Part shown: positions 20,645-38,880 of the stretch, in pieces
Layout of the letters: each line of letters opens with the position of its first letter
Numbering within the stretch: the stretch's first letter is position 1
NCBI GenBank assembly: GCA_963842525.1
Contig: CAWJGT010000004.1
Coordinates: 128,001 to 192,000, forward strand
Length of the DNA stretch: 64,000 nucleotides
Direction: 5' to 3'
From: an uncultured Holophagales bacterium
GTDB taxonomy: Bacteria; Acidobacteriota; Thermoanaerobaculia; Multivoradales; UBA5704
Notes under the pieces: model-generated
Database searches by the model: none
What the model was told of the DNA's origin: nothing
Seen by the model: the letters and a program-made list of their open reading frames with translations, nothing else
Position numbers and translations under genes: made by a program

Positions 20645-20678
20645 AGACGGGTTCTCTGCTTTTGGCGGTGCCAGCCAC

Positions 20679-22817
20679 TTATTTTGGCGTCCCCTGGGGC
20701 ACCGGGAATCCGCGCTTGCGCATCAGCGCCGCGGTACCGGGATCTTTGCCGCGGAAGGCCTGGTAAGCGTCGGCGGGCGCCATCGTGTTGCCGATCGAGA
20801 AGACGTGATCGGTCAGGCGCTTGGCCATCGCCTTGTCATACGCGCCGCCCGCTTCCTTGAACGCTTCCCAGGCGTCCGCGGAAAGGGTATCCGCCCAGAG
20901 GTAGCTGTAGTAACCCGCCGAGTAGCCGTCACCGGAGAAGACATGGCCGAACTGCGGTGTGCGGTGCCGCATGACGATCTCCTTCGGCATGCCCAGCGCG
21001 GCGAGGGTCTCGCGCTCGAACGCGTCAGGATCGATGTCCTTGTCGGGCGTCGCGGCGAAGTGCAGCTTCATGTCCATCAACGCCGCCGCGAGGTATTCGA
21101 CGGTCTGGAAGCCCTGGTTGAACTTCGAGGCACGCTCGATGCGGTCGACCAGCTCCTTCGGGATCGGTTTTCCGGTCTGGTAATGCAATGCAAAACGGCT
21201 GAGGACTTCGGGCGTTGACAGCCAGTTTTCCAGAAGCTGGGACGGAAACTCGACGTAGTCCCTCGCCACGTTGGCTCCCGAGAGCGACGGGTACTCGACC
21301 GACGACGCCAGGCCGTGAAGAGCATGGCCGAATTCGTGGAAGAGCGCCGAGGCGTCCTCCCAACTGATCAGGATCGGCTCGCCCGGCTTGGCTTTGACGA
21401 AGTTGGTGTTGTTGGAGACGATGGTCGTGATCGGACCGTCGAAACGCTCCTGTTCACGGTAGGCGTTCATCCAGGCGCCGGAATTCTTGCCGGGACGGGC
21501 ATAGGGATCGAAGTACCATAGGCCGACGTGCTGGCCCGTCCGGCCGGTCACTTCCCAGACCCGGATGTCGGGAGTCAACGTCGGGAGGCCCTGGACCGGC
21601 TTGAACTGGAAACCAAAGAGCTCGCCGGCCACCCAGAACATGCCCTCGCGCAGCTTTTCGAGCTGCAGATAGGGCATGACGGCGTTTTGATCGAGGTCGT
21701 ACTTCGCCTTGCGCACCTTTTCGGCGTAGTAGCGGTAGTCCCAGGGCTCGATCGTGATGTTCGCCCCTTCCTTGTCCGCCAGCGCCTGCATGTCGGCGAC
21801 CTCTTCATGGACGCGGGCGACCGCGGGCTTCCAGACCGCCTCCATGAGCTCCATGGCGCGCTCCGGCGTCTGGGCCATCGAGTCCTCCAGGCGCCAGTGG
21901 GCGTGGGTCGTGTAGCCGAGGAGCTTCGCCCTCTCGGACCGCAGCTTGAGGATCTCGGTGATGATCTTGTTGTTGTCCTTGGCGTCGCCGTTGTCGCCGC
22001 GGCTGAAGTAGGTGCGCCAGACCTTTTCGCGCAGGTCGCGGCGGTCGGAGTAGGTGAGGAAAGGCTCCATGCTGGAACGCGTGTTGAGGATCGCCCATTT
22101 CCCTTTCACGCCCCGCGATTCGGCGCCAGCGGCAGCACCCTGCCGCACCGGCTCGGGCAACCCTGCGAGGTCCGGTTCCTTCTCGAGCACCAGCATGTAG
22201 TTGGCCTCATCGGCGAGCAGGTTCTGGCTGAAGGTCGTGAAGAGGGTGGCAAGGCGCTGATTGATGGCCGAGAGGCGTTCCTTGGACGGCTTGTCGAGGC
22301 GGGCGCCGGCACGCACGAACGTCGTGTAGCGGTACCAGCCGAGCCGCTTCTGCTCGGGGGTGAGATTCAAGGATTCGCGCGCTTCGTAGACCGCGGCGAT
22401 GCGGGCGAAGAGCCGTTCATTCTGCGTGATCTGGTCGCCAAAAGCCGCGAGCTTGGGCGCCATTTCGCTCTCCACCGCCTGGAACTCCGGCGTGGACATG
22501 GTCGAGCTGAATACACCGAAAATGGCCCCGATCCGGCTCAGCGTCCGTCCCGACCGTTCCAGGGCGGCGAGGGTGTTCTCGAAGTCGGGCTTGGCAGGAT
22601 CTGCGGCGATGGCCTCGATCTCCGCCAGTTGCTCGGCCATCGCGGCTTCGAGGGCGGGTTTGAAGTGCTCGACCCGAACCGCGTCGTACGGCGGCACGCC
22701 GCCGTACGGTCCTGTCCACTTGCCGAGGAGCGGGCCCGGCGACGGAGCGGCGGCCATCAGCGGTGCGTACATGAGCAAACCGGCGAGGCCGAGTGCGGGA
22801 AGATGGGTCCTTGGCAT
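20679..22817 (-). CDS. dcp: M3 family peptidyl-dipeptidase Dcp
   Basis: HEFGHALH, DYVEFPSQ, GYSAGYYSYLW and K.SGAWM motifs. Confidence 0.92.
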   Translation of the reverse strand: MPRTHLPALGLAGLLMYAPLMAAAPSPGPLLGKWTGPYGGVPPYDAVRVEHFKPALEAAMAEQLAEIEAIAADPAKPDFENTLAALERSGRTLSRIGAIFGVFSSTMSTPEFQAVESEMAPKLAAFGDQITQNERLFARIAAVYEARESLNLTPEQKRLGWYRYTTFVRAGARLDKPSKERLSAINQRLATLFTTFSQNLLADEANYMLVLEKEPDLAGLPEPVRQGAAAGAESRGVKGKWAILNTRSSMEPFLTYSDRRDLREKVWRTYFSRGDNGDAKDNNKIITEILKLRSERAKLLGYTTHAHWRLEDSMAQTPERAMELMEAVWKPAVARVHEEVADMQALADKEGANITIEPWDYRYYAEKVRKAKYDLDQNAVMPYLQLEKLREGMFWVAGELFGFQFKPVQGLPTLTPDIRVWEVTGRTGQHVGLWYFDPYARPGKNSGAWMNAYREQERFDGPITTIVSNNTNFVKAKPGEPILISWEDASALFHEFGHALHGLASSVEYPSLSGANVARDYVEFPSQLLENWLSTPEVLSRFALHYQTGKPIPKELVDRIERASKFNQGFQTVEYLAAALMDMKLHFAATPDKDIDPDAFERETLAALGMPKEIVMRHRTPQFGHVFSGDGYSAGYYSYLWADTLSADAWEAFKEAGGAYDKAMAKRLTDHVFSIGNTMAPADAYQAFRGKDPGTAALMRKRGFPVPQGTPK

Positions 22818-23133
22818 GACTGAGCTCTCCTTGGGATTCTGAACGGGCGTTGCATATCGGTCTCCTGGGCTTCACCCTGTCTGCGAGGCAACCCGCCCTT
22901 TCGGGCGGCTCGATTGTAGCTCGTCCCAAGGAAGAGCGTCGGTACGGGGCAGGCGACCGGCAAGGATGCCGGCGCTCCCAGCGAATCCTCGCGCGTAAGG
23001 GTAATTTGCCCTGGCTCCTGAGGGCTTTCCCTCATGGCTTGTGAAGCCCGGAAGGCACGAGAATGCGGTGCGCCGGCTCTTGGCGCAGGTTTTGCTCTCT
23101 CGTCACATCTGTGCACTTCACAAGGAGATGCTC

Positions 23134-24441
23134 ATGAAAACGCCCGGTTCCCTGCCAGTCGTTGTCCTCTTCGGCTTGTTGCTCGCTGTTCTCCCTCTGA
23201 CCCCGGCCGCTGGGGCCGGAGCGCCGACCTACGATCTCTACACGCCCCCGCCTTTCCTCGGCCAGAGCGCCGGCGAGCCGAGCCTGGGGATCAACTGGAA
23301 CACCGGCAACGTCATGTACATTGCCGGGCTCGAGACCCTGCGCGTGAGCTTCGACGACACGGTCATACCGGCGGCGGCAAGTTGGGTCGACGTCTCCTTC
23401 CCGTTGACGAGCATTCTCACTCTGGACCCGATCCTTTTCACCGATCCTCAGACCGGGCGGACCTTCGCTGCGCAGCTCGCCGGTCCGGCAAGCCTCATGG
23501 CCTTCAGCGATGACGACGGCGCGACCTGGCTGCCGTCCACGTCCGGCCTCGCCTCCGGAATCGATCATCAGTCGGTCGGCGGTGGCCCCCTGGCCCCAGG
23601 TCTGCCGGCCCTCGGTTATCCGCACACCGTCTACTACTGCTCGCAAGGAGTGGCGCTCGCCGCTTGCTCGCGGAGCCTCGACGGCGGCCTCGTCTTCGGC
23701 CCGCCGATCCCCCTCTATACGCTGCTCCAGTGCGGCGGTCTTCACGGCCATGTCAAGGTTGGGCCGGACGGCACCGCCTACGTCCCCAACAAGGGCTGCG
23801 GCACCCAGCAGGCGGTGGTGGTTTCGGCCAACAACGGCTTGACCTGGACGGTGCGCAAAGTGCCCGGCAGCTCACCGGGCGAAAACGATCCATCGGTGGG
23901 GATCGCGAGCGACGGCACGGTCTACTTCGGATTCGTCGGCGCCGACGGGCATGTGAGGGCGGCGGTCTCGCACAACAAGGGGGCCACTTGGTCGACGCCG
24001 AAGGACGTGGGAGCGCCGTTCGGCATTCAGAACGCCACCTTCCCGGCCGTGGTGGCGGGCGACGGCGACCGTGCAGCCGTCGCCTTCCTCGGGACGCCGA
24101 CGGGCGGCAATGGCACCGGGACCGATCCGAATTTCCCGGGCGTCTGGCATCTCTATGTCGCCACCACTTTTGATGGCGGAGCGACGTGGACGACGGTGGA
24201 TGCAACGCCCAATGACCCGGTCCAGCGTGGCTCGATCTGCCTCCAGGGGACGGGGTGCAGCAGCGCACGCAACCTGCTCGACTTCATGGACATCGGGGTC
24301 GACGCCGAGGGGCGGGTGCTGGTGGCGTTCGCGGATGGATGCGTCGGGCCGTGCGTCTCCGGCCCGCCGAACAGCGATACGGCGATTGCCGGCATCGCGC
24401 GCCAGAGTGGAGGCATGCGCCTCTTCGCGGCGTTCGACTGA
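23134..24441 (+). CDS. Secreted BNR/Asp-box (sialidase-like) beta-propeller protein
   Basis: AAGGAG RBS; Asp boxes SDDDGATW, SLDGGLVF, SANNGLTW, SHNKGATW, TFDGGATW. Confidence 0.85.
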   Translation: MKTPGSLPVVVLFGLLLAVLPLTPAAGAGAPTYDLYTPPPFLGQSAGEPSLGINWNTGNVMYIAGLETLRVSFDDTVIPAAASWVDVSFPLTSILTLDPILFTDPQTGRTFAAQLAGPASLMAFSDDDGATWLPSTSGLASGIDHQSVGGGPLAPGLPALGYPHTVYYCSQGVALAACSRSLDGGLVFGPPIPLYTLLQCGGLHGHVKVGPDGTAYVPNKGCGTQQAVVVSANNGLTWTVRKVPGSSPGENDPSVGIASDGTVYFGFVGADGHVRAAVSHNKGATWSTPKDVGAPFGIQNATFPAVVAGDGDRAAVAFLGTPTGGNGTGTDPNFPGVWHLYVATTFDGGATWTTVDATPNDPVQRGSICLQGTGCSSARNLLDFMDIGVDAEGRVLVAFADGCVGPCVSGPPNSDTAIAGIARQSGGMRLFAAFD

Positions 24442-24538
24442 GAGCCAGACGCGGGAGGGAGGACGAAATCCTTTCCGCGTCCGTAACACTCCTCTTGGAA
24501 ACGGGTTATCCTCTAGATCCCGCTTCAAGGAGTGCTCC

Positions 24539-27538
24539 ATGAGCCGTCGTCCTCGCTTCATCGGTACCCTGCTTTGTCTCCTCGCCGGTCTCGGCGGGGC
24601 CGCGGTCCGCGCCCAGGAGCCCGATCCGGCGGCGCTGCGCAAGGCCGTCCAGGAGTCGCGCCTCGAGCCGGCGCGGGCCGTCGCCCTCAAGAATGTGAAG
24701 CTCGGCGCCGGCCTCGCCACGCTGCAGCTCGACGACGGGGTCCTGCTGCCGGCGTCGCCGGTCGGGGCGCGGACGGTCGAGGTGGTTTTCCTGGGCAAGG
24801 GCCGGATCGTGCTCGAGCCGCCGGACGAGATCGAGGCCGGGCAGCTCGACCTCTTCATCGGGTCGAACCGACTGGAGGAGGAGTTCACCGAGATGGTCCT
24901 CGTGCTCGGCATGGACGCGGCCGTGGATGCCATGCTGCGGAAGCCTGCGGCCACTCCAGAGGCGTCGCTCGTCCAGCGCGGCGAGGCGCTCTACCGGAAG
25001 TGGAAGGACGGGCCCGAGCGCAAGCTCCTGAACGTCGAGAGCGCCATCCTCCTGGACGCGGCCGGGGATCCGGCGTTCCAGGGGTACTTTGCGGCGTGGT
25101 TCCGCGGCAAGGAGCTCGGGGACTTCCTCTATCTGGTCAACCCGGAGGACCAGGAGCAGGTGGCCCTGGGGAGCTTCGTACCGCTGGAGGCGACGGAGAA
25201 GGAGAAGCGCAAGATCCTCAAGGAGATCGCCCGCCAGCAGCGCAAGGGCCGGCTGATCGGCCTCGAGTTGGAGGACCTCGGCCAGTGGGACACCTGGCTC
25301 TCGGCCTCGCTGCGCAACCGGGAGGGCACGCCGAGCCTGGGGGTCTCCTCGTTCGAGCCGGAGAAATACACCCTGGACGTCAGCATCGCCGAGCGCGACC
25401 TGCGGCTGACCGGACGCGCCCGGATCGACCTGCGGCCGGTGGTCCGCGGCGCCCGCGCGGCGGTCCTGCGGATCAACCCCAACCTCCAGGTCTCCAAGGT
25501 CTCAGACGGCTCCGGCCAGGGCCTTTTCTTCGTGCAGGCGGGAGACGATCTGACCGTCCTGCTGCCGCGCCCCGCCGCCGCGGGCGACAAGCTGGCCCTG
25601 GTCGTCGAGTACGCCGGGAGCGCGGTCGACAAGAGCCAGGGCTCCTATGCGCTGGCCGACACGCTCTTCTGGTATCCCCATGCCGGGACCGTCGACCGGG
25701 CCACCTATGACGTGACCCTGCGCTGGCCGAAGAAGCTGGAGCTCGCCGCCTGCGGACATCGGGTTGACGGTGGTGAGGCCTCCGACGGCACGCGCTGGGA
25801 GCGCCGCAGCCTGGACTTCCCGGCGAACGGCTTCTCCTTCGAGGTCGGCAAGTACCGGATCGAGGAGGCCCAGGCCGGCCATGTCCGGGTGAGGCTGGCT
25901 TTCGATCCCGACGTGTCGCGGATGGGCAAGGAGGCGCGGGAGGAGATCACCAAGGCGGTCACCGGATCGGTCTCCTACTTCGAGGAGCTGTTCGGCCCCT
26001 ATCCCCTGGACGAGCTGACGGTGGTCACGGTGCCGCGCTACTTCTCGCAGGCGGCCGGGCCGGGCCTGGTGACCCTGTCGAGCCTGATGATGCTCGACCT
26101 CGGCGCCTTCAACCTCCTGTTCGGCCTGGAGGACCGCCGCACCGTGGTTGCCCACGAGATCGCGCACCAGTGGTGGGGCCACAGCGTCGGCTGGTCCACC
26201 TATCGCGACCAGTGGATCAGCGAGGCCATGGCGAGCTACGCCGCCCTGCTCTTCGCCCGCAACCGCATCGACACCAAAGATCGCATCTGGCTGGGTCCCA
26301 CGTCCGGCTGGCAGAACGCCCTGCTGGACACCATTGAGGATGGCCGGGTCATCGAATCGATCGGTCCGGTGGTGCTGGGTGTACGCCTCATCTCCAGCCG
26401 GGCCGGCGACGCTTACCAGCCGATCGTCTATCAGAAGGGCGCGGTCATCCTCGACATGCTGGCGCGCAGCCTGGGCGAGCAAAATTTCCCCAAGATCCTG
26501 AAGCAGGTCGTCAAGGTGGCGGCCAACCGGCCGGTCTCGACCGAAGACTTCTTCGATCTGATCGAGCGGATCACCTCGACCGACCTCGATGCCTTCGCGC
26601 GGCAGTACGTCTACGGCACGGGGCTGCCGGAGGTCTATTACACCTACCGCTTCGAGCCGGCGGGGGAGGGCAAGTGGGTGGTCCGCGGAGAGGCGCGCCA
26701 GCAGGCGCCGTACCGCTACCAGTATCGCGTGGTGAAGACCGGTCGCGGGCTCGACGTGTCACGCGAGCGCCTCGACCAGATCAAGGTCGCGGACTCCACC
26801 CTCGTGGTGCCGGTCGAGATCGCCATCTACGATCCGTCGCGCGAGGACGGCAAGAAGAAGGGCCGGAAAGGCGAGAAGCCGGCCAATGCCATCGCCAAGG
26901 GGCACATCATGCTCAAGGGTGAGCAGACGTCGATCGAGATCCCTCTCGACCACGATCCGAAGGACTTCTGGCTCGACCGCCACGAGGTGGTCTTCGGCCG
27001 CTTCTTCAACGAGAGCCACAACCCGAAGCGGGTGCTCTTCTACCAGGCGGTGGACGCCGCCGCGGCCGGCAAGGCCGCGGATGCCGAGGCGCTCTTCGCC
27101 AAGGCGCTGGCGGCCGAAGTCGAAGTGTCGACCGATCCGGCCCATCCGCCGGACGAGAGGGAGGTCAAGAGGGAGGGGAAGTTCCTGGACGCCTGGATCG
27201 AGCTCCGGCGGGCGCGGCTGTACCTGGACCAGGACCGGGACGACGAAGCCCAGGCCTCCTTCGACCGCGCGCGCAAGGTCCTCGCCTCCTACAGCTTCTG
27301 GTTCGAAGAGGACTTGAAGGTGATCGAGTCGCGCCTCGACATCCGCCGCGGCGACCACGAAAAGGCCTTCAAGCGTCTGAACAAGGGGCTGCTCCGCAAG
27401 GGCACCCTGGACAGCACCGAGGGCTTCGTCCTCCTCGCCATCGCCGCTCAGGCCACCGGTCACACCGCGGAGCTCAAGGAGGCTATAGAGGCGGCCAAGG
27501 AGAACGGCGCGGACCTGGCGCTGCTGGGGAGCTCGTAG
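24539..27538 (+). CDS. Secreted M1-family aminopeptidase with C-terminal TPR-like helices
   Basis: AAGGAG RBS, signal peptide, AHEIAHQWWG-x-WISEAMA and YQKGA motifs. Confidence 0.88.
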   Translation: MSRRPRFIGTLLCLLAGLGGAAVRAQEPDPAALRKAVQESRLEPARAVALKNVKLGAGLATLQLDDGVLLPASPVGARTVEVVFLGKGRIVLEPPDEIEAGQLDLFIGSNRLEEEFTEMVLVLGMDAAVDAMLRKPAATPEASLVQRGEALYRKWKDGPERKLLNVESAILLDAAGDPAFQGYFAAWFRGKELGDFLYLVNPEDQEQVALGSFVPLEATEKEKRKILKEIARQQRKGRLIGLELEDLGQWDTWLSASLRNREGTPSLGVSSFEPEKYTLDVSIAERDLRLTGRARIDLRPVVRGARAAVLRINPNLQVSKVSDGSGQGLFFVQAGDDLTVLLPRPAAAGDKLALVVEYAGSAVDKSQGSYALADTLFWYPHAGTVDRATYDVTLRWPKKLELAACGHRVDGGEASDGTRWERRSLDFPANGFSFEVGKYRIEEAQAGHVRVRLAFDPDVSRMGKEAREEITKAVTGSVSYFEELFGPYPLDELTVVTVPRYFSQAAGPGLVTLSSLMMLDLGAFNLLFGLEDRRTVVAHEIAHQWWGHSVGWSTYRDQWISEAMASYAALLFARNRIDTKDRIWLGPTSGWQNALLDTIEDGRVIESIGPVVLGVRLISSRAGDAYQPIVYQKGAVILDMLARSLGEQNFPKILKQVVKVAANRPVSTEDFFDLIERITSTDLDAFARQYVYGTGLPEVYYTYRFEPAGEGKWVVRGEARQQAPYRYQYRVVKTGRGLDVSRERLDQIKVADSTLVVPVEIAIYDPSREDGKKKGRKGEKPANAIAKGHIMLKGEQTSIEIPLDHDPKDFWLDRHEVVFGRFFNESHNPKRVLFYQAVDAAAAGKAADAEALFAKALAAEVEVSTDPAHPPDEREVKREGKFLDAWIELRRARLYLDQDRDDEAQASFDRARKVLASYSFWFEEDLKVIESRLDIRRGDHEKAFKRLNKGLLRKGTLDSTEGFVLLAIAAQATGHTAELKEAIEAAKENGADLALLGSS

Positions 27539-27544
27539 GACTCA

Positions 27545-27745
27545 GAGGGTGTCTCGAACGTCTTCGCGCAGCCGAGGGCCCTCACCCCCGTCCCCTCTCC
27601 CGCCACCCCGCCCACCCTCGCCGGGAGAGGGGCGCCACCACCCTTCGATTTTCCCCCTCTCCCGGGGTGGGCGGAAGGGGTGGCGGGAGAGGGGGCCAGG
27701 GGGTGAGGGCTTTCCCGGCGCGCCTCAACCTTTCGAGACACCCTC
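27545..27745. mobile_element. MITE-like element with 14-bp TIRs enclosing a CCCCTCTCCC REP pair
   Basis: GAGGGTGTCTCGAA (27545-27558) ... TTCGAGACACCCTC (27732-27745). Confidence 0.7.
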
Positions 27746-28057
27746 CTAGCGCCCCCCGCCCGCCTTCCGCGCGATCAGCCCATATCCCAGCGCTTGGGCC
27801 TCCTGCGCGAGGGCGGCGAGCTGCGGGGTGCCGGCTGTGCCTGCGAGCTGCGCCTGGGCGAGCCGCGCCTCGAGCTGCAGGTCGAGCAGGCCGGCCTGGG
27901 TGGCTTGAGCCTGGATGGCCTGGAGCGCCGCTGCGGGATTTTCCGTTCGGCGCAGGCGGGCGGCGGCGAGGTCCACGGTCAGGCGGGCGCGCAGGTTCTG
28001 GCTGTTGCCCACCAGGATGGCGGCGCGGTCGATCGCCGCCCGGTCGATCGCCGCCCG
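27746..28057 (-). pseudogene. Duplicated 3' end (~98 codons) of the Ser/Thr kinase gene at 35049
   Basis: Aligns with 35049-35345; only 4 aa differences, mostly synonymous changes; ends in a 15-bp tandem duplication at 28026-28055. Confidence 0.92.
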
Positions 28058-28090
28058 TGCACTGCTGCGGAGAGGTGCCCGCCGATTATC

Positions 28091-28219
28091 CGGGTGCTGA
28101 TGGCGTTCGCAGACGGATGTGTCGGGACCTGCGTTTCCGGGCCGCCGAACAGCGATACGCCATCGCGACGATCGCGCGCCAGAGCGGAGGGAAGGAGTTT
28201 CTTCGCGGCGTTCGACTGA
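28091..28219 (+). pseudogene. Duplicated 3' end of the sialidase-like gene
   Basis: RVLMAFADGCVGTCVSGPPNSDT...FAAFD* aligns with 24313-24441. Confidence 0.9.
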
Positions 28220-28638
28220 GGACTGGCCTTTGAAGATGCCAGCCGAGTATCCGGCTTCATCTGGGACCGGGCCGGTGCCCTCGTAACCCTCTCCTTCGGG
28301 CGCCGCTATGGCCCTCCTCGCCGCGAGTGGGATTGCTGTGGTGGCGTGGGATAGGAACGCCCGGACCCGGGTAAAGCCGGATAAAGCCCAGAATGAAATT
28401 CGGCCAAGCCTGCGCGACAGACGATTTCCTCCGGCGTAGTGCTGCTCTGCGAGTGTGTGCAATGGCCTACTGCAGGAGGTAAACCGCCTTCGATCCTACC
28501 GCACGGCGGGCGAAAACTTGCCCCGCGTCCGTCTCTTGATTCATGGGAAGGATGCGATGGTACACTATGTCTGCAAGTGTTATCCTGCCAACCGATGACG
28601 GGTGCTTACTACTTTCCTGTCCGATCGACGCATTCGAT

Positions 28639-31600
28639 ATGCGTGAGCGCAGGCAACTGTCGCTCTGTGATCCCTTGGCACATCTGAGCCCCCGGTTCGC
28701 GGTCGTGATAGTCGGCGCGAGCATTGTGGCGGTGGTCGCATCGACCCTTGCCCGCCACTCTACAGTGGACCCTAAACATAGAGGATCCGTACGGCAGCGA
28801 TTGCTGGCGGCCTTCGGCGACTCGCGCTTGGTCGGCGTCCGACTGACCGGTCTCGAGCTGCCAGCACCAACAGACCCGCCAGCCACTATCGCCGAGCAAC
28901 GGGCAATCGCTCGCGAGATCGAGGCCAGCGTCCGAGGAAATTCCACGCCACGGGCCCTTGGCGACTTCGGCTTGCTACAGCTCGCGATCGGCCGCTACGA
29001 CACTGCGGTCAGGGTCCTTGAGAGGGCGAGTCGCCGGGCACCCTCTGACGCCCCCCTACGCGCTGACCTTGACGCCGCTTACCTGGTTCGCGGACGAGCC
29101 CTCGAAAGGCCCCGGGATCTAGTGCGCGCCCTCGACCGGATCGGGCCCGAGCCCATCACGCTAGAGTCGGCCTTCAACCGTGCGCTTGCGCTCCAGTCGC
29201 TCTACCTCCATCGGCTCGCGAAGGCTAGCTGGGAGCAGTACCTTCAACGCGATCCCAACTCCCCCTGGAGCCGACTCGCCACGGAATACTTGCGCACGCT
29301 GGTGACCGGTGGGCGCTCGATTGACCATGGCACCGGCGGCCCTAGGGTCACCGGTCGTGAAGACACAGCCGATGCCCCGGTCCAGTCGTCTCGACCTGAG
29401 GATCTCCAAACGTGGATCGAAGAGAAGGGTCTCGGGGCATGGACCTCGGCGGCCCTCGGCGGAGATGAAGCAAGCCGTAGGGCGGCCGAGCAACACCTCC
29501 GTCAGGTAGCCGTGTGGCTGTTAGAACTCAGCGGCGACCGTCTGGCCGCTGACGAAGTCGAAATCCTTGCCACAGCTCCGATGGAGCAGATAGGGCCGCT
29601 GGCTGAGGGTCTACGAGACTACGCCAAGGCGAAGAGTTGGCTTGACCGCTACGACTTTGAGAAGGCACTCACGCTCTTTGGCCGCGCCGCCGAGCGCCTT
29701 CGCTCCACTTCGAGCCCGCGCCTCTGGTGGGCCGAGGCGGGAATCGCTCACAGCGAGTTCCAGATGAAACGCTATAGTGCTGCACGCAGAAGAGCCGAGC
29801 GGGTTCTAACGGTAGCTCGCCGTCAGAGCTATGTCGCCATCGAGGCCCGCTGCGCCTGGGTGCTCGCCGGAATCGGATTGGCTGTTCTCGACCTCGATTC
29901 GGCCCAACGCTACGCGATCGCCTACCACGAGATCAATCGCCGGGCAAGGAACCGCACCGGCACCGCGACGGCCAGCCTCCTGCTAGGGCGCGTCGATGAC
30001 GAACTCGGGGATTCGACGGCGGCTTGGTTTCATCGCCTCCGGGGATTCCGCAACCTAGCCGAGGATGGCAGCGAAGAGCGGCTGGCACTGGCAATCGGAA
30101 ATGCTTCCTTTGCTTTGGCGCGGGAGGGCGAGTTCCATGCAGCTGCCGATTTTGCCTCCGAAGCCCTGGCGTTCGATCGTCAGCAGGGCACGCCGCTCGG
30201 TCTCGCAGAGTCGCTCTGGATGCGGGCGATGCACCGGGCGGAAGGAGGCGATACGAAGGGAGCGCTCGCTGATGTGCGCGAGGCGGAGTCCTATCTACCG
30301 GGTGTCGACAGCGCCGCCAATCGCGCACGCCTGCTCGCCGGGCTGCGTGCGGTCGAAGGTGCGCTGCAGAGCGAGGCCCACCCGCTTGTGGCACTCGCAC
30401 GCCTCGATGGCGCGCTTGGCTTCCTCCGACAAAGCGGTTACGAGTACGGCCAAGTGGAAATCCTTATCGATCGCGCCCGAGCACTGCGCCAGCTCGGGCA
30501 GTTCGAGAATGCGCTGGCTGATCTCGACCGGGCTGCACGCATCATCGCCGCACAGCGAGGACGCATCCGACAACCCATATTGCGAGTGTCGTTCTTCGAT
30601 CTGCAGGCCAAACTGGCCGACGAGCGAGTAGCCGCAAGCCTGCGTTTCGACCCGCGGGGCGAGCGCGCTTTTTGGGCCGCCGACGAAGCACGAGGGCTCC
30701 TCTTCCGCGACAGCCTCGCCCTTGCACCAGCCCGGCAGGCCATCCCGGTTCAGACAACCTCCCGGCTTGCGAGCCAAATCGGCGAGGCCGACGCGATCCT
30801 TTCCTACTGGTCTCTTCCCGACTCACTGCTGATCTGGATCGTGCGCCGCGACGAGCCAGCCAGACTCGTTTGCCGTGCCATCACCAGAGCCCTGCTCAGC
30901 CAACAGATTTCGGACTTCGTTGCCGCGATCGAGGAGGATTCCGAGCCCTCGATGGTTTCGTCTCTCGCGGAACGGCTCGGCGAGGCTCTGATTGCCCCCG
31001 TCGCGACCGAACTCGCAGGCGTTCGGCGCCTGATTGTGGTCCCCGATCGTGTCGTTCGCGCCGTGCCCTGGCCCGCACTCGAGGATGGCTCCGGCGCAGG
31101 TCCACTCCTTCGCCGATTTATCATCCGCATTTGTCCGGCGGCCGGGACGATTGGAGCCGGGGAAAGCGTGCGACGGCACATGGGCGAACCAATTTTCACG
31201 CGCCTGTTGGCAATCGGCGACCCGGAGGTTACCGCACTTGCGAAGGCGACCTACGCCAAGCTGCCGCACGCCCGCCGCGAGGTAGAAGGAATCGCGCGAC
31301 TCTTCGCCGACCATGTGACGCTGACCGGCCGGGAGGCCACCCGTGATCGCCTGCTCGCCGAGCTCGGACAAGCCTCTCTCCTCCATGTCGCAAGCCATTT
31401 CTCCGTGGGTCGGAATCCCGGGTCGGCCCACATCGTGCTGGCTGGTGAAGCAGGAGATGGAGCCGGAAGCCTGGACGCCGAGGCAATCGCGCGCTTGTCG
31501 CTTTCTCACCTCCGGCTGGCGGTGCTGAGTGGCTGCGCCACCGATCGCGAAAGAGAACCCTCGCTGGAAGGGACCTTCGCCGTCGCAGGCTCCTTCCTCG

Positions 31601-31851
31601 CCGCTGGCGCTACTGAAACTGTGGCAACCCTGTGGCCAGTTGACGATCGCATGACTGGCGAGTTCATGACCCACTTCTATCGCGAGCTGCTCGACGGCCA
31701 CGAAACCGACGAGGCTCTCCGGCGCGTCCAACTCGCACTGCTCGAGGGCCGCGAGGGCGCCGCTCGCAAACCGGCCCATTGGGCGGCCTTTCAAGTCGTC
31801 TCACTTCGCTCCCATGGCCGCGGGCTGAGTCTCGAAAGGAAGAAGCAATGA
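28639..31851 (+). CDS. N-terminal TM + TPR repeats + CHAT (caspase-like, clan CD) protease
   Basis: LIVVPD, LPHARRE, LHVASHF (His), VLSGCAT (Cys), FLAAGA..VATLWPVDD, HWAAF; start uncertain; possible TG-TACACT promoter at 28558-28566. Confidence 0.88.
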   Translation: MRERRQLSLCDPLAHLSPRFAVVIVGASIVAVVASTLARHSTVDPKHRGSVRQRLLAAFGDSRLVGVRLTGLELPAPTDPPATIAEQRAIAREIEASVRGNSTPRALGDFGLLQLAIGRYDTAVRVLERASRRAPSDAPLRADLDAAYLVRGRALERPRDLVRALDRIGPEPITLESAFNRALALQSLYLHRLAKASWEQYLQRDPNSPWSRLATEYLRTLVTGGRSIDHGTGGPRVTGREDTADAPVQSSRPEDLQTWIEEKGLGAWTSAALGGDEASRRAAEQHLRQVAVWLLELSGDRLAADEVEILATAPMEQIGPLAEGLRDYAKAKSWLDRYDFEKALTLFGRAAERLRSTSSPRLWWAEAGIAHSEFQMKRYSAARRRAERVLTVARRQSYVAIEARCAWVLAGIGLAVLDLDSAQRYAIAYHEINRRARNRTGTATASLLLGRVDDELGDSTAAWFHRLRGFRNLAEDGSEERLALAIGNASFALAREGEFHAAADFASEALAFDRQQGTPLGLAESLWMRAMHRAEGGDTKGALADVREAESYLPGVDSAANRARLLAGLRAVEGALQSEAHPLVALARLDGALGFLRQSGYEYGQVEILIDRARALRQLGQFENALADLDRAARIIAAQRGRIRQPILRVSFFDLQAKLADERVAASLRFDPRGERAFWAADEARGLLFRDSLALAPARQAIPVQTTSRLASQIGEADAILSYWSLPDSLLIWIVRRDEPARLVCRAITRALLSQQISDFVAAIEEDSEPSMVSSLAERLGEALIAPVATELAGVRRLIVVPDRVVRAVPWPALEDGSGAGPLLRRFIIRICPAAGTIGAGESVRRHMGEPIFTRLLAIGDPEVTALAKATYAKLPHARREVEGIARLFADHVTLTGREATRDRLLAELGQASLLHVASHFSVGRNPGSAHIVLAGEAGDGAGSLDAEAIARLSLSHLRLAVLSGCATDREREPSLEGTFAVAGSFLAAGATETVATLWPVDDRMTGEFMTHFYRELLDGHETDEALRRVQLALLEGREGAARKPAHWAAFQVVSLRSHGRGLSLERKKQ

Positions 31852-32786
31852 TCAAGGTACTGATCGTGGTTTCGGGCTTAGTGATCTTCGTTCCCGACGC
31901 TCCGCCGAATCCTCAGAGAATGACCGCCTTGCTCGTCGAGACGAAGGACGCACACGGCATGCCGCTTCACGGTATGACACTGCACGTTCCGGCTCTGCGC
32001 CAGCAGCTCGACTTCTTCTCGGTCCGCAGTTGGCACATCAATAACGGGGACTTTGAAGCAGTATTCAAGGTGGAAATGAACGGGCAGGCGACGATCAGCC
32101 TAGGTGCGCAGAAGGATTTTCCTCACCTTAGCCAACTGACCGCCAATCCCGACGACGCCACGATCAAACCCGATTGCCTTACCGGCAAATGCACCGACGA
32201 TAGCGCCGACAAAAACAAATTGGTCGCTGCGATCGTGCGGTTCGAAGGTCGTTGGCGGACGAGGCCGCTGCTGCGCTGCGAGAAGGCATGGATCCTCCCG
32301 GTAGATTTCGACGAGAAGTCGCAGTCCGAGTTTCGACTCGCCGACTTGACAACCGTCCTGACCGGGCAGGCCCAACGCCCTCTCGCGACGGGTCTTGCGC
32401 TCGAGACCGAGATCGAGACGCTTAAGGATCTCAGCCTCGTGATCCATGGTTCCACCCAGCAGCTTCAACTCACTGACCCAACAATGTGTCAGGCATGGCT
32501 CGGTGTCGGTGTGTCGTCCTGTGTTGTGCTCGAGGTGGAAAACTGGCCGGAGGTCCCCATCGATGCCTCCTGCAATGTGGCCGATCCACCGTCCCATTGT
32601 CGTGTTGACAAGCACTTCAAGATGTTCTACGACTTGATCGTGACCCCTCCTAAGGAAAACGAGCGCTGGCTGCCATACGTCGCGGCAGGTGTGGTGAAGT
32701 GCCCGAACTCACCTGGGGCAGGGCAGCCGCCTGGAATCCGCTGCCCGCCAGCGTTCACTTGTGCGAAATCTCCTTGCAAACCATGA
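31848..32786 (+). CDS. Uncharacterised Cys-rich protein translationally coupled to CHAT
   Basis: ATGA overlap with the CHAT stop; 11 Cys; HVPAL, HFKMFYDL and RCPP motifs. Confidence 0.78.
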   Translation: MIKVLIVVSGLVIFVPDAPPNPQRMTALLVETKDAHGMPLHGMTLHVPALRQQLDFFSVRSWHINNGDFEAVFKVEMNGQATISLGAQKDFPHLSQLTANPDDATIKPDCLTGKCTDDSADKNKLVAAIVRFEGRWRTRPLLRCEKAWILPVDFDEKSQSEFRLADLTTVLTGQAQRPLATGLALETEIETLKDLSLVIHGSTQQLQLTDPTMCQAWLGVGVSSCVVLEVENWPEVPIDASCNVADPPSHCRVDKHFKMFYDLIVTPPKENERWLPYVAAGVVKCPNSPGAGQPPGIRCPPAFTCAKSPCKP

Positions 32787-34006
32787 GGCCCATTATGAGT
32801 CGAATCGCTGTGATTATGTTTCTGTTAGGGCTACCCGCCCTGATCGAACCACTCGCGGGCCAACAAGTTCCCCAGTCCGTGCCCTTACGACGTCAGTTGG
32901 CCTCCGAGTGGTGCTGGGCCGCTAGCGCCCAGATGGCGATGGAAGCTCTCGGCGCCAACAGGGACGACGTGCGCCAGCGAATCCAGGCCGGACGGAGCTA
33001 CTTACCTGTCGAGAGGTGCGACTCTTTCGCCTGTAACTCTGGAGGAATTACCTTTCCGACGTGCGCCTTCGGTGGCTTCCCGCAGTTCTACAAGTTCGGC
33101 TTCGAGGCCGATGTCACCCCGCTCTATCGGCCTCTCAAATGGCTCGAGCTGTGGCAGGAGCTTCGCTGCCGTCCCGTCGTGTTCGCACGCGAGGATCTTG
33201 AGAATGGCCAACGGACCGGCACCGGTCACATGGTGGTGGCGACCTCGGCAGGGATCGCCGACGATGGCCCCTGGATTGCCGTCAAGGACCCAGGGCCACC
33301 GTGCGAGGGATCCATGCGCTCCGAGACATACGAGGAATACCTTGGGGGTAGCAGCAAGGCCCACTGGATCGACTACTACCATCTGCATAAAGCGGATATC
33401 CCCCTCGCCGAATGCGATCCACCTGAAGCGACACCATCCGTCTTCGAGATGCGCGAGAGCACTTCACCGGTCGAGCCGGTGGCGGGATTCATCGCGGCGA
33501 TCCAGAACAACTCCTGGATTCGAGCATCGGCTGGGCTGGCGGGAGACGGTGCGCTGAACTGCGACCTGGACTCTGCGATCTCCGAGAAGACAATTTCGAT
33601 TGCTAGTCTACGCAGTGCTGCGCCGGGGGTACCGCTCGATTCCCTCCTCGTTGACATAGGTCGGCAACGCTTCCTGTGCCGTAGCGGTGTCACTCAAAGC
33701 TTCTCGGTCGAGGTCGAACAACGACCGTCAGGGATGTGGCGAGTTGTGACTATTGGTGATATCCAACTTGCCAACCGGCTGAAAGCAATCCAGGACGACA
33801 AGCAGGCCGGGCAGCAGATTCAGGAGGTCTCGGTCCTAGGTCTCAACGTCCGTTTCGCCCGGCTGGTGGGCGATCCCCCGGGACTTGCGACCCCCCTTTC
33901 CTCGGTTCCCGGTTACGGTATCATGCCGGACTCCCAGGAAGAGGCAAGCCTTCTCGGGAAGCTGCGGACGGCCGCTGCGATCTTCCGTGCTACCGGCCCG
34001 ACCTAG
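32783..34006 (+). CDS. Secreted papain-like cysteine protease (C39-like/AvrRpt2-like) with a C-terminal extension
   Basis: ATGA overlap; signal peptide; RQLASEWCWAAS (Gln/Cys), GHMVV (His), KDP (Asp). Confidence 0.8.
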   Translation: MRPIMSRIAVIMFLLGLPALIEPLAGQQVPQSVPLRRQLASEWCWAASAQMAMEALGANRDDVRQRIQAGRSYLPVERCDSFACNSGGITFPTCAFGGFPQFYKFGFEADVTPLYRPLKWLELWQELRCRPVVFAREDLENGQRTGTGHMVVATSAGIADDGPWIAVKDPGPPCEGSMRSETYEEYLGGSSKAHWIDYYHLHKADIPLAECDPPEATPSVFEMRESTSPVEPVAGFIAAIQNNSWIRASAGLAGDGALNCDLDSAISEKTISIASLRSAAPGVPLDSLLVDIGRQRFLCRSGVTQSFSVEVEQRPSGMWRVVTIGDIQLANRLKAIQDDKQAGQQIQEVSVLGLNVRFARLVGDPPGLATPLSSVPGYGIMPDSQEEASLLGKLRTAAAIFRATGPT

Positions 34007-34189
34007 TACTGGAAGAGGTGCCGTCCGCCCTGGCCTGGAGGAGTCCAGGGCAGGGCAGAGGTGCCAGCTGATTATTCGGATTATTCGGTAGCAAACGGTT
34101 CGTCGCCAGCGATCGATCCAAGCTCTCGGGCCACGTGGTGCGCTGCGGGCCTGAGCCAATCTCCTTGATCTGCCGAGCGGTGCGAGGAG

Positions 34190-35048: not shown

Positions 35049-38000
35049 TCAAAGCCCCCCACCCGCCTTCCGTGCGATCAGCCCATACCCCAGCGCCTGG
35101 GCCTCCTGCGCGAGGGCGGCGAGCTGCGGGGTGCTGGCTGTGCCGGCGAGTTGCGCCAAGGCGAGCCTCGCCTCGAGCTGCAGGTCAAGCAGGCCGGCCT
35201 GGGTGGCCTGGGCCTGGATGGCCTGGAGCGCCGCCGCGGGGTTGGCGGTCCGGCGCAGGCGGGCGGCGGCGAGGTCCACGGTCAGGCGGGCGCGCAGGTT
35301 CTGGCTGTTGCCCACCAGGATGGCGGCGCGGTCGATCGCCGCCCGGGCTCCGGCGGCATCGCCGCGCGCCGAGGCGGCGAGAGCGGCCGTGGCCAGGGCA
35401 AGCGCCTCGCCGTCGGCGTCTCCCTGGCGGGCGAGCTCTCCGGCGGCGGCGCGGGCCTCCTGTTCGGCGCGGACCGGGTCGCCGGCGTCGAGCAACAGCG
35501 CGGCGAGGGCCTGCCGGCTCTCGGCCGCCTTGTCTCTTTCGCCCAGGGCCGTCCGCAGGGCGAGAGCCGCCTCGTGGCGCCGGCGCGCCTCGACCAGGTT
35601 CCCCTCGCGGGCCAGCACCTCGCCCACCCCGAAGAGGGCGTAGGCCGACGCGCTCTTGCTGCCGATCTGCCGGCAGAGCGCCGTCGAGGTCTGGAACTGT
35701 TTGCGGGCGGCCGCCAGCTCCCCCTGTTCCAGGAGGACCGCTCCGAGGTTGTTGAGCGTGGCGACCTCGCCGATCTTCTGGCCGATGTCGCGCCGGATGC
35801 GGAGCGACTCTTCATGCCGCCGGCGCGCACCCGCGAGGTCCCCCCGCTTGCGCAGCACCGCGCCGATGTTGTCCAGGGCGTAGGCTTCGCCGCTCCGGTC
35901 CCCCTGCTCGCGCTGAAGGGCGAGGGCCTGCTCGAAGAGCTTGCCGGCCTCCGCGAGGTCGCTGCGCCGGAAGAGGACGCCCGCCAGGTTGTTGAGCGCC
36001 TGCGCCTCGCCGCTCTTGCTGCCGATCTCGCGGCAGATCGCGAGCACCTCCTGGTAGAGCTGGCGCGCCCGGTCGAGGTCTCCCCGGCTCTTGAGCACGA
36101 TGGCGATGTTGTTGAGCGCAACGGCTTCGGCTCCCCGGCTGCCGATCTCCCGGTAGGTCGCCAGCGCCTGCTCGTAGCGGCCGAGGGCTGAGTCCAGGTC
36201 GCCGCGGTCGTAGAGGACATTGGCGGCGTGCGTCTGGGCCTCCGCTTCTCCGGCCCGGTCGCCGACATCTGCATAGAGCCGCTGGCCCTCCTCGCAGGCG
36301 GCCAGCGCCTCTTGGGCCTGCCCGAGGTTGCGCAACGCCCGGCACTCCATGAGCCGGGCCTGCGCCACCATCAGCGGCGCGCCCTGGGCCTTGCCCTTGG
36401 CGGCGGCGCGGGCCGCCGCGTCCCGCTGCCGTCCGAAGTTGGCGCGGACCCCGGCCGCCGTGGCCTCGGCGAGGTCGATGCCCGGGTCCTCCCCCGAGGG
36501 GGGTGGCAGGGCGCGCAGGGCCGCGGCCGTGGCCAGCGCCTCGTCCGCTTGTCCCGCCATCGTCTGGGTCTTGGCGAGGCGGAGGCCATAGTCGAGGTTG
36601 TCCGGGAACAGCGACCAGAGGCTCCAATAGATCTCGGTCGCGCGGTCCCAGTCCTGGACGGTCTCGAGATACCGTCCCTCGATCAGCAGCCGCTCCTCCT
36701 GGGGCAGCCCGTCGGCGAGGTCGAAGGCCCGCTTCGCCTCCTCGCGCGCCTTGCCGTCGAAGCCCAGGGCGGTCCAGGCCGTGGAGAGCGCCCGATGGAT
36801 GAGGGCGTTGCCGGGCTCGGCCGCGGATGCCCGCGCCAGCAGGTCGCGCGCGCCCATCGGGTCGAACAGCCGCAGCTTCTGAAGCCCTTCCGCATAGAGC
36901 CGGGCGGCCTGGGGATTCTCGGGCAGGGCGGCGCGGGCCGGTTGCGCCGCAGCCTCGGCGGTCACCCCCAGAGCCTTGCGCAGGCGCTCGCCGACCCGGG
37001 AGACCAGGTCGAAGAGCTGCGCCTCGCTGCCGGACTCGGCCACGGTCGCGGTGGTCTCGCCCCGCGCCGCGTCCTGGAGCCGGAGATCGAGCCGGATCGT
37101 CCGCCCCTGCGGGCCCGCCAGCGTGGCGTACGAGCCCACCACCACGGCGTCGGTGCCGAGCAGGCTGCGCAGGCGCGCCAGCGTCTCGCGCCCAAGGCTG
37201 TCGGCGTCGCCGAGATGGAGCTCCACCTTGGCGCGCGCCACGTTCTCGCCCGCGATGATCCGCAGCTTGCCGCCGGACCCCAGCTCCGTCGACAGCATCT
37301 CGGCGAGCCCTGCGGATAGCCACTCGGTCCCCGGAGTGCCGGAGAGGTTGCGGAAGCCGAGGACCGCCACCGACCGCCGCGGGGTAATCCGTTCGGTCAA
37401 CAGCGCCAGCCTCTGCCCCGGCTCGAGCTGTTTCTGCCGCCACTGCCCATAGCGGACCCAGCCCACCGCGGCGGCGGCGGTGACGAGGCCAGCGAGCAGA
37501 AGAATCTGGAGCCGGCGCCTCCCGGCTCCGGAGGACGCACGGGAGGGCGCCGGAACGGTTGGCGCGGGCGCGGCGGGTGGAGGCGGCTGGAAGGCCGGCG
37601 TCTCCCCCTGGGAGGCCAGTGTGATGGCGTCGATCGCATCCAGGACGGACCGGAAGCGGCCCGCCGGCTCGCGCGCGAGGCAGCAGAGGATCGCCGACTC
37701 CCACCGTTTGCCCAGGTCCGGCACATGGACGCGCGGCGAAGGCGGCGCCTCCTGGAGCCGCTTGACCGCGGTCGAGAGCGCCGTATCGCCGAGGAAGGGG
37801 ACCTTGCCGGTCAGCATCTCGTAGAGGACGATGCCGAAGGCATAGATATCGACCGCCGGGGTGATCTCCTTGCCCTCGATCTGCTCGGGAGCGAGGTAGG
37901 CGGGAGTGCCGACCACGCCGGCGTGAGCGGTGAGGGTGAGCCCCCGGTCGTCCGATCCGCTCTCCAGCCGGGCGAGCCCGAAGTCGGTCACCACGGCGCG

Positions 38001-38789
38001 GAGCCCGCCGCGCCCCTCGGCCAGCACCACGTTGCCGGGCTTGAGATCGCGATGGACCACGCCGACCTGGTGGGCCGCGTGGAGCGCGCTCGCGACCTGG
38101 CGGGCGATGGGAAGCGCTTCCTCCGGCCGCATCGGGCCGCCGCGCCGCAGCCGCTCGGCCAGCGTCTCGCCCGGCAGCAGCTCCATGGTGAGGAAGATCG
38201 TCTCCTCGCCGCCACCCTCCGGGCGGTGGTAGGAGACGTCGAAGATCCGGCAGACGTTGGGATGCGTGACCTTGCGGGCGAGCTGGATCTCACGCCGGAA
38301 GCGTTCGACCGCCGTCTCGTCCCGGCCCACCTCGGAGCGCACCATCTTCAAGGCGACGCGTTCCTTGAGCTCGAGGTCGTCCACCTCGTAGACCTCGCCC
38401 ATGCCGCCGCGGGCGATGAACCGCACCACGAGGTAACGGCCGCCGACCCGCTCACCCGGCGCGAAGGCCGGCTTCTGCTCGCGCCGCGGAGCAGACGCCG
38501 GGCCGGGCTGCGTCGCGCTCGGGAGGGGACTGGTGAGCTGGTCGGTGAGGCTCACCCGGGTCGCGCTCTGCACCGGCATGCCCACCAGCGTCGGCGGGGG
38601 AGGGGCGCCCACCATCGTCACCTGGCTCGGGTCCGCGCCCGGGCGCCGCACTCCGAACGCCGTCCGGCACGACGCGCACTGGATGCGCAGGCGCGGCGGT
38701 GTCTCCGCATTGACCAGGAAACGGAGCTTCTGGCCGCAACCCGGGCAGGTGACGGTGAACGGGGAGGGGGTTGCCGAAAGCTGGCTCAT
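35049..38789 (-). CDS. Ser/Thr kinase: zinc ribbon, kinase, TM, TolB-like segment and many TPRs
   Basis: CPGC...CASC, RGGMGEVY, HRDLKPGN, DFGLA, GTPAYLAPE, SVAVLGFRNL and TPR repeats. Confidence 0.92.
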   Translation of the reverse strand: MSQLSATPSPFTVTCPGCGQKLRFLVNAETPPRLRIQCASCRTAFGVRRPGADPSQVTMVGAPPPPTLVGMPVQSATRVSLTDQLTSPLPSATQPGPASAPRREQKPAFAPGERVGGRYLVVRFIARGGMGEVYEVDDLELKERVALKMVRSEVGRDETAVERFRREIQLARKVTHPNVCRIFDVSYHRPEGGGEETIFLTMELLPGETLAERLRRGGPMRPEEALPIARQVASALHAAHQVGVVHRDLKPGNVVLAEGRGGLRAVVTDFGLARLESGSDDRGLTLTAHAGVVGTPAYLAPEQIEGKEITPAVDIYAFGIVLYEMLTGKVPFLGDTALSTAVKRLQEAPPSPRVHVPDLGKRWESAILCCLAREPAGRFRSVLDAIDAITLASQGETPAFQPPPPAAPAPTVPAPSRASSGAGRRRLQILLLAGLVTAAAAVGWVRYGQWRQKQLEPGQRLALLTERITPRRSVAVLGFRNLSGTPGTEWLSAGLAEMLSTELGSGGKLRIIAGENVARAKVELHLGDADSLGRETLARLRSLLGTDAVVVGSYATLAGPQGRTIRLDLRLQDAARGETTATVAESGSEAQLFDLVSRVGERLRKALGVTAEAAAQPARAALPENPQAARLYAEGLQKLRLFDPMGARDLLARASAAEPGNALIHRALSTAWTALGFDGKAREEAKRAFDLADGLPQEERLLIEGRYLETVQDWDRATEIYWSLWSLFPDNLDYGLRLAKTQTMAGQADEALATAAALRALPPPSGEDPGIDLAEATAAGVRANFGRQRDAAARAAAKGKAQGAPLMVAQARLMECRALRNLGQAQEALAACEEGQRLYADVGDRAGEAEAQTHAANVLYDRGDLDSALGRYEQALATYREIGSRGAEAVALNNIAIVLKSRGDLDRARQLYQEVLAICREIGSKSGEAQALNNLAGVLFRRSDLAEAGKLFEQALALQREQGDRSGEAYALDNIGAVLRKRGDLAGARRRHEESLRIRRDIGQKIGEVATLNNLGAVLLEQGELAAARKQFQTSTALCRQIGSKSASAYALFGVGEVLAREGNLVEARRRHEAALALRTALGERDKAAESRQALAALLLDAGDPVRAEQEARAAAGELARQGDADGEALALATAALAASARGDAAGARAAIDRAAILVGNSQNLRARLTVDLAAARLRRTANPAAALQAIQAQATQAGLLDLQLEARLALAQLAGTASTPQLAALAQEAQALGYGLIARKAGGGL

Positions 38790-38880
38790 CGGAGTATACG
38801 GGCGTTTCCTCGCCTCGGGACCGGCGCGATTCCTCACCTATCGCTGGAAAACAGGGCGATTCTACCCCATCCGCCCTGAA

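Follow-up and report, generated by a model that had tools for sequence, protein, structure and literature searches.

We analysed 64,000 nucleotides (nt) of DNA from an uncultured Holophagales bacterium (positions 128,001 to 192,000 of contig CAWJGT010000004.1, assembly GCA_963842525.1; this whole stretch is called the window below) and found that it carries a 7.3-kb acquired insert. The insert contains an operon of three plus-strand genes, which encode a TPR-CHAT protease, a cysteine-rich protein referred to here as the middle protein, and a papain-like peptidase. Judging from gene order at related loci, the conserved core of the operon is a two-gene, translationally coupled module of CHAT protease and middle protein. 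The best explanation that we can offer is that this acquired insert brought in a coupled CHAT-partner pair which works at the cell envelope and in which the partner is acted on at its C-terminus. We give this reading a probability of about 0.42.

The linkage between the two genes was assessed by scanning GTDB genomes with the middle-family alignment, which returned four further loci (L001-L004), all in metagenome-assembled genomes of Acidobacteriota/Thermoanaerobaculia. An earlier interpretation of the window, made from its letters alone (the sequence-only reading), had tied the middle protein to the CHAT protease, and the linkage recurs in all four loci: a full-length TPR-CHAT gene lies directly upstream of each middle-protein homologue. 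These upstream orthologues match the Pfam CHAT model with E-values of 1e-53 to 1e-57 and are 50-65% identical over about 1,050 residues. In 5/5 loci, the window included, the stop codon of the CHAT gene and the ATG of the middle-protein gene overlap, with a GGAG stretch a few bases upstream. The flanks of the four loci are otherwise unrelated (they encode DoxX, a flavin halogenase, uvrB/uvrC, the class A penicillin-binding protein PBP1, aconitase and DUF1501), and none of the window's neighbour genes was found there. A word-indexed search gave 12 middle-protein relatives, counting the protein itself, and, as indirect evidence, seven of these 12 matches sit on contigs of the same size as that of a CHAT match.

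The papain-like peptidase is, as far as gene content across these loci indicates, an accessory third component present only in some of them. Its gene is full-length in L003 and absent from L001 and L002, and seven of the nine family members sit on contigs of the same size as those of middle-protein matches. In L004 (9080-10191) the homologue is spread across two reading frames, with a predicted protein (P0063) truncated to 245 residues; the split reflects a frameshift or else an error in the assembly. The two-protease cascade of the sequence-only reading therefore does not hold as a conserved feature, the papain-like gene being missing from two of the four loci and seemingly frameshifted in a third. 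The assignment of the enzyme itself is supported by its sequence, which points to a signal-bearing papain-like (C70/C39_2-like) cysteine peptidase. The Pfam matches to Peptidase_C70 (PF12385, 14.2 bits, cut-off 19) and C39_2 (PF13529, 14.8 bits, cut-off 24) are below threshold and centre on an N-terminal Q...CW motif, and five of the nine family members have a C70 match with E<=0.1, the best at 4.5e-12. The signal peptide and the Gln/Cys/His/Asp set noticed earlier were both recovered: a hydrophobic, signal-type N-terminus is found in 9/9 family members, and Q34, C40, H145 and D165 (403-residue numbering) are invariant in all nine. In the ESM Atlas the protein scored 0.95 with 201 features shared with C70/C39_2 clusters, and 0.91 with staphopain clusters. 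Its C-terminal half of about 200 residues is uncharacterised.

Further peptidase genes lie next to the module in two of the related loci. On the minus strand of L004 (10383-15441), a second, more distant TPR-CHAT, split over several open reading frames (ORFs), is followed by a Peptidase_S8 gene, the whole being convergent with the module; in L001 an S8 gene stands, also convergent, right after the middle gene. We rejected the S8 peptidase as a conserved component of the module, as the S8 proteins of L001 and L004 are just 25% identical.

The list of ORFs in the window gives three plus-strand frames for the operon (28543-31851, 31779-32786 and 32699-34006). Both ATGA stop/start overlaps described earlier, GCAATGATCAAG at 31848 and ACCATGAGGCCC at 32783, are present in the DNA. 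The third gene, however, may start at the ATG at 32795, because the source's own call of 403 residues (P0056) and the homologue alignments begin there; the second overlap, although present, is therefore possibly not a functional start. For the CHAT gene, a start at 28543 is more likely than one at 28639, since the 32 added residues align without a gap from residue 1 with the orthologue P0068. The source call for the same protein (P0065) has 909 residues and lacks the membrane segment and the first TPRs, and several orthologues are called similarly short. Hence, the export signal of this CHAT clade would be hidden by automatic annotation.

The borders and composition of the insert are clear. 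It is bounded by a pair of 295-nt direct repeats, found by a repeat search and DNA alignment, which are 94% identical and spaced by 7,303 nt. The right copy corresponds to the 3'-terminal ~98 codons of a Ser/Thr kinase-TPR gene (35049-38837, minus strand; kinase domains matched), and the left copy, when translated, is 97% identical to the C-terminus of this kinase over 88 residues. The repeats enclose the three-gene operon and two tandem minus-strand TIR genes. The GC content at third codon positions (GC3) is 0.70 in each of the three operon genes, compared to 0.82-0.91 in the surrounding M3, BNR, M1 and kinase genes; across all insert genes it is 0.70-0.80 (0.72 in TIR gene A) against 0.82-0.91 outside. 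The less GC-biased insert that the sequence-only reading had suspected is thereby given both a number and borders, and flanking direct repeats and atypical composition, the features by which a genomic island is recognised, are found together. Domain scans showed no integrase or recombinase domain among the insert ORFs, a tRNA scan showed no tRNA gene within the window, and promoter/terminator, tRNA and Rfam scans over the insert gave nothing informative.

The CHAT assignment is unambiguous at the level of the domain: Pfam CHAT (PF12770) matches residues 776-1054 of the 1070-residue reading with an E-value of 9.9e-58 and 196.3 bits (cut-off 24), and several TPR families match the same product. 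From its N-terminus, the protein has a short tail, a single hydrophobic segment and TPRs, and it ends in the CHAT domain. Its dyad, as had been noted before, is intact, with the His in HVASHF and the Cys in LSGCAT, both invariant in 5/5 orthologues and retained by 40 of the 41 relatives; only P0098 has neither His nor Cys. The observation that the motif reads SHF instead of the usual HG is also correct. In the relatives, the catalytic His is followed by F (24 cases), A (11), S (three) or G (one), so that by this comparison HF is a trait of the clade and no sign of an inactive enzyme. Weak local matches pair this Cys with the catalytic residue of Csx29 (C658, E 0.75) and of human separase. PADLOC gave no significant match for any of the three operon proteins (the best, BovA to the CHAT protein, had an E-value of 0.049, and the other two had none), and a PDB sequence search with the CHAT-family profile returned generic TPR proteins only.

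The location of the protease is suggested by its relatives. One N-terminal hydrophobic segment is present in all five CHAT orthologues, and in the window protein, where the sequence-only reading had placed a transmembrane segment, 19-residue Kyte-Doolittle windows reach 2.48 at residues 13-40. More broadly, 27 of the 41 relatives bear an N-terminal hydrophobic segment, a lipobox or an anti-sigma (ZAS) motif. In a sister subfamily (41-48% identity), three members have LAAC lipoboxes and several others signal-type N-termini. Four distant relatives (P0093, P0098, P0100 and P0104; 27-31% identity) carry an H-x3-C-x2-C motif, three of them with a hydrophobic segment behind it at residues 68-83, and Pfam zf-HC2 is found in P0093 and P0098. 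DdvA of M. xanthus is an anti-sigma factor with a periplasmic TPR-CHAT, solved by cryo-electron microscopy (PMC11506125). Because the relatives bear lipoboxes, signal peptides and anti-sigma N-termini as in DdvA, the TPR-CHAT of the window probably faces the periplasm. By the same analogy the module is probably extracytoplasmic and not of the cytoplasmic Csx29 or gasdermin type, and of the options raised by the sequence-only reading, action at the envelope is the better one, with the signal-type N-terminus shared by the family of the third protein as further support.

DdvA is the closest characterised architecture that our sequence comparisons identify, although the window protein differs from it in both the ZAS domain and the sigma partner. 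Like DdvA, it combines a single N-terminal segment with a large TPR-CHAT that bears a His-Cys dyad, and its distant relatives at 27-31% identity bear the ZAS motif. Unlike DdvA, it shows no zf-HC2/ZAS in the whole protein or in its N-terminal 86 residues, no sigma-70-type or ECF (extracytoplasmic function) gene is found among the upstream ORFs, and it has a conserved downstream partner, which is undescribed for DdvA. The PDB searches gave no significant sequence match to the DdvA entry.

This partner, the middle protein, appears to found an undescribed, unnamed family with a predicted fold that has no counterpart in the PDB or BFVD. The sequence-only reading could not name its family; in our searches, too, it had no Pfam, NCBIfam or PADLOC match at E<=1. 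Literature searches found no published account of the CHAT-middle pair or of the partner family. Among 1.84 billion cluster representatives the family has 46 representatives at E<=0.001; the meaningful matches are 85-337 residues long, and no fused forms were seen. A first AlphaFold2 model, built with 12 sequences, had a mean predicted local distance difference test score (pLDDT) of 72.8 and no Foldseek match, and it was superseded by a model from a 40-sequence alignment with a pLDDT of 92.5 and a predicted TM-score of 0.92. The latter is almost all-beta, and its sole low-confidence stretch is residues 289-296. A Foldseek search of this model against 350,542 PDB chains gave no match at E<=0.001, and one against BFVD no significant match (best E 7e-2). 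Mu-homology domains and Fabs, considered as the fold, were rejected (best E 5e-3, probability <=0.07 in the PDB). Hits to P0052 (Ig C1-set repeats) and P0054 (cadherin/Big_9 repeats), with E-values of 8e-5 to 4e-4, were treated as beta-sandwich repeat noise. The PDB sequence search with the middle-protein profile A2 yielded a chance match only (E 1.5), and profile A4 was also without a real match. In the ESM Atlas the best score was 0.83 with recognition below the mark and no lead, and tblastn against plasmid and phage collections found no match. A relationship to the family of the papain-like protein was rejected as well, the two being unrelated by hhalign.

The 11 cysteines and the HVPAL, HFKMFYDL and CPP motifs that had been singled out before are all present, and the three motifs fall in columns which the family conserves. 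G10, H46, C110, C115, W136, P151, C214, C225, H256 and C299 are invariant in 40/40 family sequences, and D254 is nearly so. Nine cysteine columns are conserved. Two pairs, C110/C115 and C214/C225, are constant; C144 and C285 disappear jointly in three sequences, as do C242 and C251 in five; and C299 is invariant and unpaired. Such covarying pairs look like disulfides and suggest an oxidising compartment, because the pairs are lost independently of each other, as disulfides would be. The C-terminus of the family has a pattern of its own. The linker between C285 and C299 is 10-42 residues long and precedes a conserved I-R-C-P-P tail, in which C299 is directly preceded by R or K (36 of 40 sequences) and followed by PP (27 of 40); the final tail comprises 4-19 residues. 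Residues 301-310 have a pLDDT of 93, and a tail modelled with such confidence probably packs on the body of the protein. At the other end, the N-terminus is as hydrophobic as a signal peptide by hydropathy.

Our preferred reading combines these elements into the following mechanism. The TPR-CHAT protease would be anchored in, or exported across, the inner membrane via its N-terminal hydrophobic segment, and the middle protein would be made in step with it through translational coupling and bind it as a dedicated partner. The protease may then act at the C-terminus of the partner, where a flexible, length-variable linker is followed by the basic-Cys-Pro-Pro tail packed on the body, and the partner would change its state once this tail is cut or displaced. 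Metacaspases, which are clan relatives, are reported to cut after Arg or Lys (10.1101/2023.06.23.546230); the basic residue before C299 would fit a P1 position for this reason. A bolder version, which we consider improbable, is a periplasmic CHAT switch which holds a latent effector of new fold, silenced by its own R-C-P-P tail. The lone C299 would cap a His/His/Asp site in the style of a cysteine switch, an envelope signal (phage, competitor or damage) would lead to removal of the tail and free an enzyme or toxin, and the papain-like peptidase would be a second stage in some lineages.

Several observations weigh against our preferred reading. Neither a cleavable signal peptide nor a small-residue cleavage site is recognisable in the middle protein, whose N-terminus (MIKVL..G10..P16), conserved down to ~25% identity and modelled as buried strands with a pLDDT of 97, is more in keeping with a cytoplasmic than with an exported protein. 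The topology of the window CHAT protein is taken from its relatives, and the charge distribution around its own hydrophobic segment is ambiguous. The gene context comes from five loci, all Acidobacteriota, and the distant members of the middle family (23-36% identity to the window protein) lie outside this comparison. Five close CHAT orthologues are on contigs (14822, 312785, 4799, 6004 and 39085 nt) without a middle-protein match, which means that the pair is not universal or that the partners escaped the word-indexed search. With respect to the cleavage itself, Pro-Pro directly after R-C would disfavour a cut at that bond and would suit a pseudosubstrate. That the partner is cleaved, as the sequence-only reading supposed, is an inference. 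A complex prediction for CHAT residues 400-1070 with the middle protein, which scored 0.02 against a mark of 0.32, speaks neither for nor against binding, the fold of the partner being uncertain in that program.

In the main rival reading, the CHAT protease, and perhaps the papain-like enzyme too, has the middle protein as its stoichiometric inhibitor or chaperone, which would silence the protease during synthesis or export or until a signal arrives, with R-C-P-P as an uncleavable pseudosubstrate. This role fits the data about as well as a substrate role, and we regard it as somewhat unlikely. Cysteine proteases with a dedicated stoichiometric inhibitor or chaperone are known in separase-securin, where securin is a pseudosubstrate, and in staphopain-staphostatin, where staphostatin is encoded downstream of the protease and has no signal peptide. 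The gene order from protease to partner, the coupling conserved in 5/5 loci, which suggests equimolar production, and an all-beta protein with no cleavable signal would all suit such a role, as would the Pro-Pro after the basic-Cys in 27/40 sequences and the proximity of the third protein to staphopain clusters (0.91). Precedents include PCi, an inhibitor reported to be co-encoded with a prokaryotic caspase (10.1101/2023.06.23.546230), and securin as the inhibitor of separase (PMC11506125). However, a protein of 312 residues with an invariant His/His/Asp set and nine conserved cysteines is large and elaborate for an inhibitor, being three times the size of staphostatin. It has no sequence or fold similarity to solved inhibitors such as staphostatin, chagasin or securin (PDB profile E 1.5, no Foldseek match), and the disulfide-like covariation speaks against a cytoplasmic holdase. 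Since the middle protein persists where the papain-like gene is absent, it is not the inhibitor of that enzyme.

In a cytoplasmic immune cascade, the analogy drawn by the sequence-only reading, the CHAT protease would cleave the middle protein to release a toxic effector upon phage infection, as in Csx29-Csx30 or protease-gasdermin pairs. In craspase, the TPR-CHAT protein Csx29 with its substrate Csx30 is said to be cytoplasmic, Cas7-11-bound and triggered by RNA. The window system resembles craspase in that a TPR-CHAT has a co-encoded specific partner, and differs from it by an all-beta, unrelated partner, by the export signals of the clade and by the lack of cas-type domains in the scanned ORFs of the window and of the four loci. 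With bacterial gasdermin loci it shares a beta-rich protein of ~300 residues beside a CHAT or caspase-type protease and a short C-terminal segment packed on the body; unlike them, it shows no gasdermin match by Foldseek in the PDB, the protease gene comes first and the protease clade is exported. Two TIR genes with PADLOC TIR matches in the same acquired insert, neighbours that differ at every locus as in mobile accessory modules, a middle protein without a cleavable signal, and DdvA, which shows that a TPR-CHAT can be tied to phage defence (PMC11506125), argue for such a role. The analogy is nevertheless weakened by the lipoboxes, signal peptides and anti-sigma topology of the CHAT clade, by the housekeeping flanks at the other loci, by the lack of a significant PADLOC match for the three proteins and of a gasdermin or other effector fold in the PDB or BFVD, by the absence of the TIR genes from 4/4 related loci and of any match in the phage and plasmid collections, and by the absence of cas or CBASS (cyclic-oligonucleotide-based antiphage signalling) genes among the window ORFs scanned. 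We consider this the least supported reading and very improbable; given the TIR genes and the precedent of DdvA, some link to conflict systems is still conceivable. A co-secreted degradative or surface-maturation set, with the middle protein as an independent metal-binding enzyme or binding module beside the proteases, appears improbable, too. H46, H256 and C299, which are invariant, and D254, which nearly is, make a plausible candidate set of metal ligands, and secreted peptidases abound, with M1, M3 and trypsin-like ones in the window and S8 genes adjoining the module in L001 and, after the second TPR-CHAT, in L004. However, no enzyme fold was recognised for the middle protein, and strict adjacency to CHAT with an overlap in 5/5 loci exceeds what co-regulation needs.

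The module resembles systems of a CHAT protease plus a dedicated partner and belongs to none of them: cas genes, a SAVED domain and a gasdermin fold are all lacking. To our knowledge, bacterial TPR-CHAT proteins are many and those with a known substrate or trigger few (Csx29, SAVED-CHAT and HetF, with DdvA by hypothesis only). The coupled partner is a ready candidate substrate, inhibitor or cofactor for a probably periplasmic CHAT clade. In the SAVED-CHAT, PCaspase and PCi system, a protease cascade with a co-encoded inhibitor is cytoplasmic and triggered by cyclic triadenylate (cA3) via SAVED (10.1101/2023.06.23.546230). Two cysteine proteases and a co-encoded protein in one locus are common to that system, whose regulator PCi is small, and to the window; here, however, the second protease is papain-like and optional, and there is no SAVED domain. 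The DdvA-like metagenomic relatives would widen that architecture beyond Myxococcota and one Comamonas, the range given in the DdvA report (PMC11506125).

The features of the insert are collected in the table below.

Table. Features of the insert, in window coordinates
Feature	Coordinates	Strand	Remarks
Left 295-nt direct repeat copy	27751..28045		Orphan duplicate of the Ser/Thr kinase-TPR gene 3' end; left insert edge
18-nt motif copy 1, TGCCNGCYGAKTATYCGG	28076..28093	+	Just inside the left repeat; belongs to 37-nt repeat family D2
18-nt motif copy 2	28237..28254	+	Some 290 nt before the start of the CHAT gene
TPR-CHAT protease gene	28543..31851	+	1102 aa; 1070 aa from 28639
Middle-protein gene	31848..32786	+	312 aa; start overlaps the CHAT stop (ATGA)
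Papain-like peptidase gene	32783..34006	+	Alternative start 32795
18-nt motif copy 3	34062..34079	+	56 nt past the third-gene stop
TIR gene B, 141 aa	34190..34615	-	Pfam TIR_2 6.2e-28; PADLOC TIR models; convergent with the operon
TIR gene A, 139 aa	34599..35018	-	Pfam TIR_2 6.3e-25; directly downstream of the kinase gene
Right 295-nt direct repeat copy	35054..35348		Genuine kinase-TPR 3' end; right insert edge

The 18-nt motif TGCCNGCYGAKTATYCGG has three matches in the window, where 0.01 would be expected by chance, and these flank the three-gene operon. It was not found in the related loci L001-L004, and it is possibly a regulator site or a cassette-end repeat. The two TIR genes are 35% identical, overlap by 17 nt and match TIR/ThsB-type models of PADLOC.

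Outside the insert, a 48-nt inverted repeat (27585-27701; 83% complementary, with 21 nt between the arms) is located in a C/G-rich tract right after the M1 gene and is possibly a terminator-like hairpin. The surroundings are rich in peptidases: 18350-27538, 8249-9733 and 46490-47713 encode a CarboxypepD_reg protein, an M3 peptidase, a BNR-repeat protein, an M1 peptidase of 1155 residues, a trypsin-like protein and a second ORF with an M1 domain.

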